Assembly (NCBI GenBank): GCA_041690135.1 | Contig: JAWLHY010000002.1 | Location: forward strand, 1,221,167-1,285,166 | Direction: 5' to 3' | Length of the DNA: 64,000 bases | From: Armatimonadota bacterium | GTDB taxonomy: Bacteria > Armatimonadota > SYMT01 | Part shown: positions 1-4,011 of the stretch, piece by piece | How the letters are laid out: every line of letters starts with the position of its first letter | Position numbering within the stretch: the stretch's first letter is position 1 | Notes under the pieces: generated by a model | Seen by the model: only the letters and a program-made list of their open reading frames with translations | Told to the model about the DNA's origin: nothing | Database searches by the model: none | Program-made: the position numbers and the translations under genes

Positions 1-2
1 GA

Positions 3-317
3 CCGGAATTCCAGGCCTGGAAGGACGGGATTTCCGAATTCGCCCTCCGGATGAATGTGAGCTGCAAGCTTTCCGGTGTGATCAAGACCTGCAAGGACAC
101 GCCGAACAAGGCCGCGCAACTCCGACCTCTCGTCGACCACGTGATCGACGCCTTCGGGCCGGACCGGGTGATCTGGGCCAGCGACTGGCCGGTCTGCGAG
201 TTCACCGCCTCCCTGAAGGAGTGGGTGGATGTGGCGCACGCCCTCACCAGCGACCTGCCCAGCGCGGATCGGAAGAAGATCTTCCACGATAACGCGGTGA
301 AGTTCTACCGCGTGTAG
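3..317 (+). CDS. Amidohydrolase family protein (Amidohydro_2), 3' part; truncated by window edge
   Basis: Frame open from base 3; motifs NVSCKLSG, FGPDRVIWASDWPV, IFHDNAVKFY. Confidence 0.85.
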   Translation, partial: PEFQAWKDGISEFALRMNVSCKLSGVIKTCKDTPNKAAQLRPLVDHVIDAFGPDRVIWASDWPVCEFTASLKEWVDVAHALTSDLPSADRKKIFHDNAVKFYRV

Positions 318-330
318 GTGGCCTTTGCAT

Positions 331-361
331 GGAGGGGGCCCGTTCAAGCCGGGGCCCCTCC
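331..361. terminator. GC-rich hairpin just after the amidohydrolase stop
   Basis: GGAGGGGGCCC...GGGGCCCCTCC inverted repeat; no clear U-tract. Confidence 0.5.
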
Positions 362-377
362 AACTGCGGCCTCTCCG

Positions 378-1365
378 ACTAGAGTTCCCGCGCCATTGCT
401 GATGCTTGGAACCAGGGTTACTTGTCACCCCAGTTCTGATCGCCCTCGCTCGCTCTGCGCCGCGGCAGTACCGGTTCTTGGTGAACGGTATGGTCTTTGT
501 TATTGCACCGATGTAGGGCAGGTTTTCCGATGCCTGCCTGGCACTGGGTTCGCACCTGTCTTGCCGTGTGGGGCTCCGATTACCCTGGCCTATGCGAGGC
601 CTTCCCGTCCGGTGTCGAGCATTGTGCTACGCTGGCTGCCCGGGTTTTTGTTCGCCTTGCTGACCAGCTACCGTGTAGTCCCCCCGCGCCCTAGTCACCC
701 GCAGGCTCCCTCACGCGACAATCGGCCCTGCGCTCGGCCTTTCACGCTCGTCCCTCGCTAGCGGCCGGCTCCGGGCGCAAAATACGCAATTGGCTCCCCG
801 CGTGAAGACTGGCGGCGTGGCCCAGATTGGCGGTTAACGGGAGCCTGCGGGCGCCGTCGAGCGACCTCCCCCTCTGGGGAGGTCACAAGAGGGGGCGTCC
901 GACACGCCCCCAGTGATTCCGGTAGCCGCTCAACTGATGTCAACGATCCGCACTTCTGCCGAACCTGTGGCCGACCTATCGGCTCGATGTGTTGCCCCGT
1001 TGGGTAACTCACTCGCGGGGGTCCGACACCCCAGGGGTCAGACGGCAGTCTGCTTTTCGTTCTGAACTCCATACCCTTGTATGTCCATCCGTCACCATAG
1101 GTTAGAACCGCCATCGAACCTCAGGCCGACGGGTCGGCCAGGATGTGGCTCCCCCTGGGGGGAGCGGCTTAAGCTGGAGAGGGGACGACCGTTCACGCCT
1201 GGCGGAAGGCACAGTGCCAGGCCGTTGCGCGGGAAGTTGATTTGCCAGGCACGTCCGGAGCCGGCCGCTAGCGAGGGACGAGCGTGAAAGGCCGAGCGGA
1301 GGACCAGACTCGCGGGAGGGCGTCCCCTCGGAGGTGAGGGCCGGGGGGACTTACCGGTAGCCGCA
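378..1365. ncRNA. Candidate large structured RNA or non-autonomous element
   Basis: No credible ORF; lies between convergent genes; about 10 local hairpins plus long-range complementarity (see findings). Confidence 0.4.
731..1298. repeat. Perfect 44-bp inverted repeat pair (731-774 and 1255-1298)
   Basis: CGCTCGGCCTTTCACGCTCGTCCCTCGCTAGCGGCCGGCTCCGG and its exact reverse complement; degenerate similarity continues outward to 667/1361. Confidence 0.95.
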
Positions 1366-1434
1366 AAGCGAGAGATGAAACACCACCGTTGTTGATGAGC
1401 TCAATGGTTCGCGGCACACCGCCCCCTGTGAAAG

Positions 1435-2022
1435 CTATCGCTCCGGCCGCTCCGGCAACTCCACCCGCGCATAGATCTCTGCCAGCGAGAGCGTTATCTC
1501 CGCCACCGCATCCAGGGGCACGGCGGCATCGGGACCCTCGAATTCCTGAAATACCCATTCCTCTGCGCGTCGCTCGAACCGCTCGACGCGCATCCGATCT
1601 GAGGAGACCACCCAGTACTCTCGCAGCGAAGTTATGCGACGGTAGTGCCCAAACTTCGCGCCGCGGTCGTAGGCTTCGGTGGACGGAGAGAGGACCTCGA
1701 TCAGCACGGCAGGATTGACCAGCGTGTTCGGGTCTTCGGGATCGAACTCTTCCGGGGCGCAGGCGATCGAGAGATCGGGGTAGGTATAGAAGCCCAGGGT
1801 GGGGATACCGACCCTCTGATCGCTTCCAATGGGCTGACAGGGAGATGTGCGAAGTGCGGCCCAGAGTAGCCCGGTCAGGTTGGCAGTGATCTGGTTGTGC
1901 GCCCGTGACGCTCCGGCCATCGCGTAGAGCCGGCCGTTCACCAGTTCATGACGGATGGGAGAGTCTCGCTCGAACGCCAGATACTCAGCGGGCGAAATGG
2001 ATCGGTCTTCAGCGGCGGACAT
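1435..2022 (-). CDS. Uma2 family endonuclease (DUF820)
   Basis: YLAFER..RHELVNG..AMAGAS..HN, YTYPD, IEVLSPST..YDRGAKF..Y. Confidence 0.93.
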   Translation of the reverse strand: MSAAEDRSISPAEYLAFERDSPIRHELVNGRLYAMAGASRAHNQITANLTGLLWAALRTSPCQPIGSDQRVGIPTLGFYTYPDLSIACAPEEFDPEDPNTLVNPAVLIEVLSPSTEAYDRGAKFGHYRRITSLREYWVVSSDRMRVERFERRAEEWVFQEFEGPDAAVPLDAVAEITLSLAEIYARVELPERPER

Positions 2023-2325
2023 GGAGGCGAATCTCTTGGTGTTAGGTGTGGGGGCCAGGTCTTGTGGGAGCTAAGGGGTTGGGGCGAGTAACTGGGAAGG
2101 TACGGTTTCCCTGAGGGAGGCCGACACCCGCGCGCGGGTACCCGGCGCCGTCACTCCGGCAAGCCTCGCGGACCTGCGTGGAGAAACAGGCTTGTACCGA
2201 ACGGTCAAAAACTGGCCAGATTCTTCCCCCAACCCCTTAGTGCCGGCGAGTAAGGGTATGTCCCACCCCTCAATTGTAACAGTCCCTTTCGCTCTGGTCG
2301 GCACCAACGTACCGGATGTCTCGGA

Positions 2326-4011
2326 TCACTTCACCGCTTCGCCATCGTAAAGCGGCAGCATCACCCGGGACGGGTGCTTTGCGGAGAGGTGTATCGTATT
2401 CGTGGCCACGCGGCCCTTGCCGGGCGTAAAGTGCGGTTCGCCGGTGTTCGGGTTCGGCTCGAAGCGAGGGGCATTGGACGAGGAGACGGCGATCCGGATG
2501 CGGTGGCCCTTGTTGAACACCTGCGACGTGCTCCAGAGGTCCACGTTCAGCTCGTAGACCCTGCCGGGCTCCAGCAGCTCGCGCTTCGAGAAGCTCTTGC
2601 GGAGCGAGGCGCGTCGGATGCCGTCGGTCACTAGCAGGGAACGGCCGTCGGGGTAGACGTCCGTAAGCTTCACCGTAAAGTCGGTGTCCGGTCCGTCCGT
2701 GGAAACGTAAAGCTTTGCGGAGACGCGGCCGGTTACCTCCGCCGCCTGCATCAGCGGCTCGCTGGTGAAGACGAGGACGTCCGGACGGGACTCCACCGGG
2801 CGTTGGTCCATCGGCCCTTTGGCTATCCCCAGGTTCTGGCCGCCGGTCGTGGGCACCGGTTTCTCGGGGTCGTACTTGTAGGTAAGGTCGCGCTCGCCGT
2901 CTGGCTTTTTCAACGAGAGCTTGCCGTCCGCGCGAAGATACAGCGGCGTCGGCGTGGAGGGGGGCGGCCACGTGTCCGCCGAGCGCCACGCGTTGCCCGG
3001 CGAGTCGGCCTCTCCCACCGCGCCCATCACATAGTAGTGGACCGGCTTCAGCTTTTCCACGGCCGGGTCCGGCTTCTGCGCCCAGTGCCCGATGACGTTC
3101 ATCGGTGCGATGAGGTTGAGCGGTGCCTCGCTGGCTCCCGGGTACTCGACCTTCTCGGCATACGCGCCGTGGGCCTGCGGTCCGATCACCAGGAAGCACT
3201 TCCCCCGGGCGCCGGGCCCGCCCCGCTTCTGGATATTCACAAACGAGTTGATCGTCCCCTGGACGAAGATGTCGTGCCAGCCGCCGATGAACACGCCCGG
3301 AGCATTCACCTGCTCGGCATGGGCGTCGGCGCTGAGCCCCTGCCAGAATTCGTCGTAAGTGGGATGCGCGAGGAACGTCTTCAGGTTGACGTCCTCCATC
3401 CGGGTAGCCTTGAGCCAGCCTTCCAGCAACTCCTTCCGCCACACGCCGCCCTGGTAAGCCGCCTGGTGGTAGTAGTCCGAAAAGGCCATAAGCACGACCT
3501 GGCCCTTTAGCGCTTCCGGGGCATTCGGCGCGGCCATGTTCTGCGTGATGCCCAGCGCGGAGGCGCCCCAGGTCACCACCTTCCCATTCGACCACGGCTG
3601 CTTCGCGATCCAGCGGAGGGTATCGTGACCGTCCTGATGCTTGCCGCCCAGGCCGTCGTTCGCGAAGATGATGGCATGATTCCCCTCCGAGGCGAACCGG
3701 CCGCGCATGTCCTGTGAGACCACGGCGTAACCCATGCGCCCCAGTGCTTCGAGCTGGGCTTTACCCACTCCCTTTCCGTAAGGGGTGCGGGCCAGGATCG
3801 TGGGGAACGGCGGCTGTTTGCCGGGTGGCACATACACGTCGGTCGCGAGCCGGATCCCGTCCGCCATCGGCACCATCACGGTCTGCAGCCCGGCCTGACC
3901 CTTCCCTTGCGCCGCCGCGCGCACGCCCCGTCCGGCCGCACACCCTCCCAGCGCGGCCGCCGCCAGAAGGAGACCGATGCCGGTGACCCGAACGCCGAAT
4001 GGGAGAGTCAT
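2326..4011 (-). CDS. CocE/NonD family hydrolase (peptidase S15-like), probable lipoprotein
   Basis: VPMADGIRLATDVY, RTPYGK, QDMRGRFASEG, GASALG nucleophile elbow, C-terminal DTDFTVKL/GHRIRIAVSSSN; LGGC lipobox; start chosen at MTLPF. Confidence 0.88.
   Translation of the reverse strand: MTLPFGVRVTGIGLLLAAAALGGCAAGRGVRAAAQGKGQAGLQTVMVPMADGIRLATDVYVPPGKQPPFPTILARTPYGKGVGKAQLEALGRMGYAVVSQDMRGRFASEGNHAIIFANDGLGGKHQDGHDTLRWIAKQPWSNGKVVTWGASALGITQNMAAPNAPEALKGQVVLMAFSDYYHQAAYQGGVWRKELLEGWLKATRMEDVNLKTFLAHPTYDEFWQGLSADAHAEQVNAPGVFIGGWHDIFVQGTINSFVNIQKRGGPGARGKCFLVIGPQAHGAYAEKVEYPGASEAPLNLIAPMNVIGHWAQKPDPAVEKLKPVHYYVMGAVGEADSPGNAWRSADTWPPPSTPTPLYLRADGKLSLKKPDGERDLTYKYDPEKPVPTTGGQNLGIAKGPMDQRPVESRPDVLVFTSEPLMQAAEVTGRVSAKLYVSTDGPDTDFTVKLTDVYPDGRSLLVTDGIRRASLRKSFSKRELLEPGRVYELNVDLWSTSQVFNKGHRIRIAVSSSNAPRFEPNPNTGEPHFTPGKGRVATNTIHLSAKHPSRVMLPLYDGEAVK

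Follow-up and report, generated by a model that had tools for sequence, protein, structure and literature searches.

A hairpin-dense spacer in an Armatimonadota genome is a mosaic of multicopy repeats, one of which is a foldback of a unit with a conserved fold

This study concerns the spacer at positions 318-1434 (1117 bp) of a 64,000-nucleotide window (G000:C2:1221167-1285166) from the 9.1-Mb, 25-contig genome of an Armatimonadota bacterium, in which an earlier note had proposed a single large structured RNA spanning 378-1365. We found that the spacer is a mosaic of independent repeat modules and unique filler and not one unit, given that each module has its own copies elsewhere in the genome and that 920-1140 is unique. 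[quoted passage not shown] The second is a foldback of ~740 bp (643-1384) composed of two diverged, inverted copies of a ~270-nt unit that we call X. We consider, with a probability of roughly 0.6, that A and X are non-autonomous mobile repeats of the REP/MITE kind and that the X fold is recognized on a single strand. The modules, with positions in the window, are as follows.

411-597, plus strand: truncated copy of family A (found by nhmmer), with a degenerate left terminal inverted repeat (TIR) at 411-427 and the last ~28 nt, including the right TIR, missing
513-538, plus strand: REP-type core of family A, with GTAG at 513-516 and then the hairpin GGCAGG (517-522) / CCTGCC (533-538)
598-642, no strand: short segment that separates family A from the left X arm and has no further genomic copy (BLAST coverage 0)
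643-939, minus strand: left arm, an X unit (arm-to-arm alignment; covariance-model match of 133.9 bits; X-copy alignments)
Parts of the left arm, minus strand: P1 at 891-911, P2 at 863-884, long-range helix 698-710/839-851, model core 694-853
940-1095, no strand: variable center of the foldback, unique, containing at 1017-1032 one more P1-like hairpin and at 1039-1052 a weak site that resembles a terminator
1096-1384, plus strand: right arm, an X unit (covariance-model match of 134.4 bits; inverted repeat; alignments)
Parts of the right arm, plus strand: P1 at 1124-1139, P2 at 1148-1165, long-range helix 1179-1190/1318-1329, model core 1175-1334
1385-1428, plus strand: A/C-rich tail past the right arm, common to the sister composite G000:C2:1214602-1215317, 6.4 kb upstream

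A BLAST comparison of the spacer with its own genome returned 58 matches, and the coverage profile was uneven along its length.

415-597: up to ~48 copies elsewhere
660-915: 3-9 copies elsewhere
1190-1428: 3-12 copies elsewhere
300-400, 598-642 and 920-1140: 0 copies elsewhere

The stretch therefore splits into modules that are each copied elsewhere in the genome, and we give next to no weight to the proposal that 378-1365 is one large structured RNA. Dense hairpins and a low folding energy do speak for it. The minimum free energy of 378-1365 was -519.9 kcal/mol on the plus strand, compared to -446.3 +/- 10.4 in 20 dinucleotide shuffles (z -7.1), and -506.6 on the minus strand, compared to -425.5 +/- 9.0 (z -9.0, again 20 shuffles), and in this test the stretch was thus more stable than shuffles on both strands. 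However, the excess stability is the same or larger on the opposite strand, which fits inverted repeats in DNA and indicates no particular transcript. Family A also occurs without X at ~119 other sites, X occurs without family A at 15 other sites, and 598-642 and 920-1140 are unique and not conserved. A search for homologs with covariation, which had been suggested as a check, gave a divided answer in that the fold of the X unit covaries but the whole stretch has no homolog in 40 relatives.

The individual features that had led to the proposal are real. The stems at 517-538, 863-884, 891-911, 1124-1139 and 1148-1165 were all recovered, as were the direct repeats 866-881/1149-1164 and 893-908/1017-1032 and the 11-nt repeat CCGGTAGCCGC at 919 and 1354. 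The long-range complements 698-710/839-851 (13/13) and 536-546/1212-1222 (11/11) are likewise present, together with one near 667-686/1342-1361 whose extended form (656-686/1342-1372) matches at 74%; the largest complement, 724-777/1252-1305 (54 nt, 94%), had been overlooked. Most of these long complements reflect the pairing of one X arm with the other, the stems 698-710/839-851, 863-884 and 891-911 are helices of the X unit, and the 536-546/1212-1222 complement links two unrelated modules, which is a further argument against a single RNA. The claim that reading 378-696 on the minus strand turns most stem mismatches into G-U pairs, as under selection on RNA, did not hold up. The family A part has almost no consensus fold (-8.46 kcal/mol), and the single G-U-rich helix predicted in it lies on the plus strand and shows zero compensatory change.

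The foldback is defined by its two arms, given that 1096-1384 (plus strand) and the whole of 643-939, read on the minus strand, align with each other. Each arm points its 5' end at the 156-bp center, which has no genomic copy elsewhere. There are 17 X copies in this genome, of which 8 form four divergent pairs (the window, C2:1214602-1215300, C5:21536-22218 and C7:358342-359045), and the rest are mostly same-strand pairs or tandem sets. The center differs in length and sequence among the four composites. Across the composites, a left-type arm is closer to the other left-type arms than to the right arm of its own composite, as P1 (GGGGGCGTGTCGGACGCCCCC) and P2 illustrate, so the composite was copied as a whole. 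In the sister composite upstream, C2:1215074-1215317 matches 1189-1428 at 77% (BLAST). The exact direct repeat CCGGTAGCCGC was seen at 919-929 and 1354-1364; the latter copy is the conserved 3' motif of the right arm, and the former, in the center and adjacent to where the left arm has its 5' end, could be left over from an earlier X copy or have arisen by chance.

The distribution of X among other genomes is restricted and patchy. The core model matched 4 of 151 genomes across the phylum, all in the taxonomic family of the window; X is present in three of the six other members of that family and, under stricter filters, was found by the core model in none of 144 genomes from other families. 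A focused search counted 102 copies in G005, 8 in G006 and 1 in G004, and found no X in G001, a congener of G006 with 95% completeness. Such wide variation in copy number among relatives is easier to reconcile with mobile DNA than with an RNA gene of the housekeeping type. At least 16 divergent pairs occur in G005, with start-to-start distances of ~350-395 bp, and eight aligned pairs have conserved arms, a variable center and unrelated flanks. On one contig of that genome (G005:C40:13690-29330), six solo X copies occupy six consecutive spacers over 16 kb, all on one strand regardless of gene direction, and the X units are the only repeated part, with unrelated genes as neighbors. Tandem X sets occur on contig C3 of the window's genome and in G006. 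A looser sequence pattern for X found two metagenome contigs (one full-length X and one partial) and no viral contig. A strict pattern had no match in species-representative genomes and is uninformative, being too strict even for G005 and G006.

The fold of X is conserved beyond its sequence. The core (160-190 nt) of each of the 17 copies in this genome was aligned with MAFFT, and folding of the alignment with RNAalifold gave a 10-bp closing helix, a second helix in which CGCG pairs with CGCG, and a third of 7 bp whose internal loop is conserved. These helices were paired in 93.2% of cells compared to 81.4 +/- 1.1 in shuffles, and pairing dropped to 25-49% when the partners were slid by 1-3 columns. 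Double-change cells numbered 51 compared to 15.2 +/- 3.1, and the observed value was reached by none of 500 shuffles on four of five measures and by 1 of 500 on the fifth, the number of pairs with a double change. Both sides have changed in 7 of the 10 pairs of helix 1, and the closing-helix sequences differ from copy to copy while each pairs with its own partner (GGGGACGACC, CAGGCTCCC, GCCGCCC, GAAGYTCCC and ACCCCACCC). The closing helix lies at 698-710/839-851 in the left arm of the window and at 1179-1190/1318-1329 in the right arm. In an alignment of 58 copies from four genomes and one metagenome contig, which was fitted to the model and is therefore biased towards it, 94.7% of cells were paired compared to 74.0% in shuffles, with compensatory change in 23 of 29 pairs and 325 double-change cells compared to 99.5.

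The covariance model covers a 168-position core, and P1, P2 and the tail were judged by inspection of the alignment, without formal counts. The sequences of P1 and P2, which lie 5' of the core, vary while their stems are kept; P2 consists of GATCTCCCC...GGGGGGAT followed by AGCTCGAAG. Left-type and right-type arms differ in sequence and keep the same helices, and the unpaired stretches GCUAGCGA, GAGCGUGAAAGG and CGCGGGAGGG are conserved. In some copies, one variable stem of the core consists of a small REP insertion from a different family (TACCCAC...GTGGGT, 46 genome copies). X thus has the conserved secondary structure with compensatory changes that is looked for in structured RNAs. The note's fallback of a pair of related RNAs is borne out to the extent that the locus holds two diverged copies of one covarying unit (643-939 minus, 1096-1384 plus), but the copy number fits mobile DNA better. 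Its failure to match the stretch to a known RNA class was reproduced. An Rfam 15 scan of window positions 1-3000 and 18 X loci (E<=1) gave no family at the gathering threshold, and a scan for tRNA and tmRNA in 1-2500 was empty. The subthreshold Rfam matches were whalefall-1, at 22.4 bits against a gathering threshold of 37, on one hairpin of one X copy; mir-299, on a CRISPR-repeat palindrome (33 against 67); and Ms_IGR-2 (21 against 45).

We considered that X could be a family of structured non-coding RNA genes whose arms would be transcribed divergently from the variable center. Each arm would give an RNA of ~270-330 nt with the conserved fold and an A/C-rich tail, the copies would have increased in number either as genes or as a mobile module that encodes the RNA, and this RNA might act, for example, in defense, as a cofactor or as a guide. 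The strong covariation in the 58 copies, with which the MAFFT-based count agrees, suits this possibility, as do the shared helices of arms that differ in sequence, the conserved unpaired stretches, the retention of the fold in four genera and the orientation of both 5' ends towards the center. G-U outnumbers A-C at the helix positions of the sense strand (38 compared to 20), which hints mildly that each arm folds on one defined strand. However, this bias is weak and is absent in right arms (4:4), being carried by left arms (10:3) and other copies (24:13). Several X copies lie in defense neighborhoods (AbiJ, MmeI and a CRISPR locus), and the four at the CRISPR locus are downstream of arrays on what is read as the crRNA strand. 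On the other side, no sigma-70-like promoter was found in 250-1500, by a scan that does not cover the promoter type of this phylum, and the center from which both arms would be transcribed is not conserved; the one terminator-like site, the weak one at 1039-1052, compares with 1.0 expected by chance. A look-up of sequencing runs gave no RNA run that contains the stretch. The range from 0 to 102 copies within one family, with X missing from one of two congeners, the lack of a constant neighbor gene and the six G005:C40 copies that keep one strand whatever the direction of the neighboring gene also weigh against RNA genes. We regard this explanation as possible though unlikely, and note that it overlaps with that of a mobile element, so the two are not fully exclusive.

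Family A is a more conventional repeat. A profile built from BLAST hits gave 120 genome matches (nhmmer, E<=1e-3), with the window copy scoring highest. Complete copies measure ~211-226 bp, for an element of ~215 bp, and the consensus begins and ends in TIRs (GGTGGGTCAnTTGCC ... GGCAAnTGACCCACC) of 15-17 bp that are exact inverted repeats; the 15-nt consensus ends are complementary at all 14 defined positions. Both TIRs are kept, with <=4 mismatches, in only 6 of 52 copies. Conservation is highest in GATGTAG, the hairpin GGCAGGC-loop-GCCTGCC and the TGGGnTnGCACCCGTCnTGCCGTGTGGG that follows, and in 20 aligned copies the GTAG and GGCAGG/CCTGCC columns are invariant or nearly so. One stem pair of the REP hairpin covaries (GC in 12, AU in 7), and double changes occur in 3 of 16 pairs of the consensus fold. 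Family A is conserved as sequence, not as structure.

The spacer counts are based on a crude gene caller of our own (6304 genes, 81% coding). Of the 96 copies at nhmmer E<=1e-10, convergent spacers contain 42, tandem spacers 37 and divergent spacers 8, and the other 9 overlap predicted genes; the genome background is 998 convergent, 3420 tandem and 1046 divergent spacers. Of the 37 copies in tandem spacers, 28 run in the direction of the genes and 9 run against it. Among the 61 copies in windows with |skew| > 0.01, the strand of family A also agrees with the sign of the local GC skew in 44 (Fisher p 6e-4), although the mean |skew| is only 0.017 and the assembly is fragmented, so that a closed genome is needed for this test. 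This orientation fits replication-coupled single-strand transposition, a mode linked to IS200/IS605 insertion sequences. At the BLAST level, family A was absent from 40 relatives, including six genomes of the same taxonomic family, and its exact 26-nt core had no match in a collection of species-representative genomes.

According to the part of Di Nocera et al. (2013, PMC3733652) used in this work, a class of REPs is recognized by a GC-rich hairpin with GTAG at its base, and such REPs are biased to convergent and co-directional spacers, as family A is here. Like the GTAG REPs and SMAG-type repeats covered there, family A has the GTAG-footed GC-rich hairpin, a high copy number and an extragenic location in spacers of these two kinds. 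Unlike them, as far as that part of the paper goes, the hairpin sits inside a ~215-bp unit with TIRs and a second strongly conserved block, CCCGTCnTGCCGTGTGGG. No cognate gene for a REP-associated tyrosine transposase (RAYT) flanked by the same REP was found. The TIRs are those of a MITE, with the window copy lacking its right end. Family A works like a REP embedded in a MITE.

Enzymes of the expected kind are encoded in this genome. Y1_Tnp matches number nine, three of them strong, ~150 aa long and RAYT-like (C11:209659-210000, C1:627841-628185 and C2:54557-54895), and each of these three IS200/RAYT-like genes is flanked by repeats of up to 51 genome copies from families that differ from A and X. 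The three loci are REPtron-like, and REP-type systems therefore exist in this genome. The flanking of Y1 genes by multicopy repeats recalls the REP/RAYT systems in the portion of PMC3733652 consulted, with the difference that no Y1 gene here is flanked by the family A REP. Two small hairpin repeats were also seen, GTTTACGCCCC...GGGGCGTAAAC with 71 genome copies and the TACCCAC...GTGGGT repeat mentioned above. Small REP hairpins are nested in family A copies, directly after GTAG, and in X copies (for example at C12:192397-192654, C2:552324-552692 and C4:194910-195193), which suggests that several REP families insert into one another. Spacers of at least 2 kb without a coding signature were observed to be filled with family A, X and other repeats (C11:177330-179392 and C3:829076-834509); the same gene caller gives 359 spacers longer than 1 kb in the genome.

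The copy numbers and boundaries, the inverted architecture, the conserved fold of X and the restricted and patchy distribution are established, and we suggest the following history for the locus. The convergent spacer would be a landing zone in which lineage-specific, non-coding, non-autonomous repeats piled up, namely a truncated MITE-like family A with its GTAG-tagged REP hairpin core and the foldback of two diverged inverted X copies around a variable center. Both A and X would have spread as DNA, and the X fold would be what a trans-acting enzyme recognizes on a single strand; the leading candidate is an HUH/Y1 transposase (RAYT- or TIRYT-like) acting on single-stranded DNA. Whether as DNA or RNA, X probably acts through a folded single strand. 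Mobile DNA is favored by the patchy copy number, the recurring foldback, the lack of a partner gene and of sigma-70-like promoters together with an unconserved center, the one-strand run in G005:C40 and how common REP-type systems are in this genome overall. In favor of a functional single strand, which may be RNA, are the fold kept across arm types and genera, the conserved junctions and the excess of G-U over A-C. Strong Y1 genes are present in all four X-holding genomes.

Several results weigh against this reading. The covariance model found no X unit in the nine Y1 loci, the family A core GTAGGGC[AG]G did not occur within 1.5 kb of any of the nine, G002 has Y1 genes and no X, and in G005 and G006 the Y1 genes and X copies are on different contigs or kilobases apart. 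No target-site duplication was found in 14 X foldback pairs, and for family A, whose copies are old and have fuzzy ends, the best flank match over any offset or length was shared by 1 of 6 copies. There is no sign of an autonomous parent, in that genome-wide matches to A and X are all short and non-coding, and no transposase lies between the X arms at the loci inspected. Copies share only 65-88% identity, so they either spread long ago or are subject to selection. Neutral decay of dead transposons does not predict a multi-helix compensatory fold in both arms and in four genera, and a fold that covaries across four genera suits a functional RNA at least as well. In addition, a single transposing DNA strand would carry one arm in sense and the other in antisense, unlike the mild hint from the G-U counts. 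We also considered a TnpB/omega-RNA system and rejected it, because there is no Cas12f1-like_TNB match in the genome (IscB and IS110 were outside this search).

Four of the X copies lie in a context of clustered and regularly interspaced short palindromic repeats (CRISPR). G000:C3:830500-850200 is a type I-E-like CRISPR-Cas locus with three arrays of ~45, 32 and 21 repeats that recur every 61 bp; read on the minus strand, the repeat is CTTGTCCCCACGCACGTGGGGGTGAACCG. One array and two X units lie between cas6e and cas1. The four X copies are found where two of the arrays degenerate at their ends, each bracketed by type I-E-like repeats (2-9 mismatches in 26), so that X occupies would-be spacer positions between CRISPR repeats. 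The degenerate array end is presumably the trailer end, and the strand giving CRISPR RNA (crRNA), on which X would lie, is presumably the one that matches the type I-E repeat. Such an arrangement would be expected if X were a CRISPR-linked element, that is, a trailer or leader module or an oversize insert between repeats that was later scattered. We consider this very unlikely, given that the other 13 of the 17 copies have no CRISPR repeat nearby (11-14 mismatches, the background level), the third array has no X, and G005 and G006, with 102 and 8 copies, have no Cas6e match. The absence of Cas6e from these two genomes also led us to reject a dependence of X on type I-E CRISPR. The association is a local peculiarity and does not define X, as the 13 copies without a nearby repeat and the two genomes without Cas6e make clear.

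Bacterial MITEs such as Correia/NEMIS, ERIC and BOX are short, non-coding, multicopy elements that lie in spacers and can fold as RNA when co-transcribed. A and X are like them in being short, non-coding and multicopy, with inverted ends and a location in spacers, and unlike them in that no target-site duplication or parent insertion sequence was found for either and X covaries across genera. X shares with the HEARO/omega RNAs, GOLLD, ROOL and whalefall-1 of Rfam, some of which ride mobile elements, a long, GC-rich, multi-helix form, but it falls below every Rfam threshold and the genome has no TnpB-type gene. The closest parallels are repeats that occur in pairs. X recalls the REPINs, as presented in the part of Bertels and Rainey (2011, PMC3116915) drawn on here, in that the foldback is a non-coding, multicopy and patchy inverted doublet around a spacer whose pairing is preserved by compensatory changes. 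It differs from those REPINs in being ~10 times larger (~740 compared to ~100 bp) and in having multi-helix arms of diverged subtypes and no flanking RAYT that we could find. TIR families of TIRtrons occur as singles, dimers and clusters, and some of these TIRs are partly self-complementary, as outlined in the section of PMC3733652 that we used. The X doublet likewise recurs alongside single copies and clusters, whereas a TIRtron is described there as a Y1 gene flanked by long TIRs and X flanks none of the nine Y1 genes here.

The locus itself is an ordinary repeat pile-up, and X is a variant of bacterial structured repeats. No description of X was found in Rfam or in a limited literature search, which is a thin basis for calling it unpublished. 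We have doubts about the further idea that X is a new class of structured nucleic acid of ~270 nt, with four to five helices and conserved junctions, that multiplies as a divergent pair. Such a class could be a mobile RNA gene whose product takes part in genome conflict in trans, serving as a guide, a cofactor or a decoy, or alternatively the folded single-strand recognition module of an unrecognized transposition system. The X copies at CRISPR spacer positions hint at traffic between X and CRISPR arrays.

The surroundings of the spacer agree with their first description. An Amidohydro_2 gene (plus strand) ends at 317 and a Uma2-family gene occupies 1435-2022 on the minus strand, so both point into the spacer as had been stated, and 318-1434 has no open reading frame with a coding signature. 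One further feature lies next to the amidohydrolase.

330-362, plus strand: GC-rich stem-loop with a 13-bp stem, an inverted repeat that is 92% complementary, 13 nt past the amidohydrolase stop codon

No U-tract follows this stem-loop, and the terminator scan gave no call there. Orthologs of the amidohydrolase in G001 and G003 have neighbors that differ from those in the window, and therefore no comparison with an empty site was possible. The 20 genes beside the 17 X copies have no common family and include ankyrin, cadherin-like, PQQ dehydrogenase, PSD/PSCyt, PfkB, NIF3, SDR, AbiJ, DUF4268, MmeI, Cas1, Cas2, Cas6e and Uma2 members. The two most similar X foldbacks (77-79% identity) bracket a block of four genes (window -6520 to 1384; G000:C2:1214602-1222550), the first a PSD/PSCyt "planctomycete cytochrome" gene and the last the amidohydrolase gene. 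At G000:C2:549181-552692, two X units in direct orientation bracket 3 kb with DUF4268 and AbiJ-N-terminal-domain genes whose third-position GC is below that of the surroundings; this segment may be an acquired defense cassette.

In summary, our findings mean for annotation that where this 9.1-Mb genome has long spacers rich in hairpins, these are accumulations of repeats and should not be annotated as single large RNAs. X is an unusually large and elaborately folded bacterial repeat, with a fold kept in at least four genera and copy numbers from 0 to ~100. It makes testable whether such a fold is selected on RNA or on the single-stranded DNA seen by a transposase, and it provides a clean family in which to find the responsible enzyme. 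If the relationship between family A orientation and GC skew is confirmed on a closed genome, it would be independent evidence of replication-coupled single-strand mobility in a little-studied phylum.

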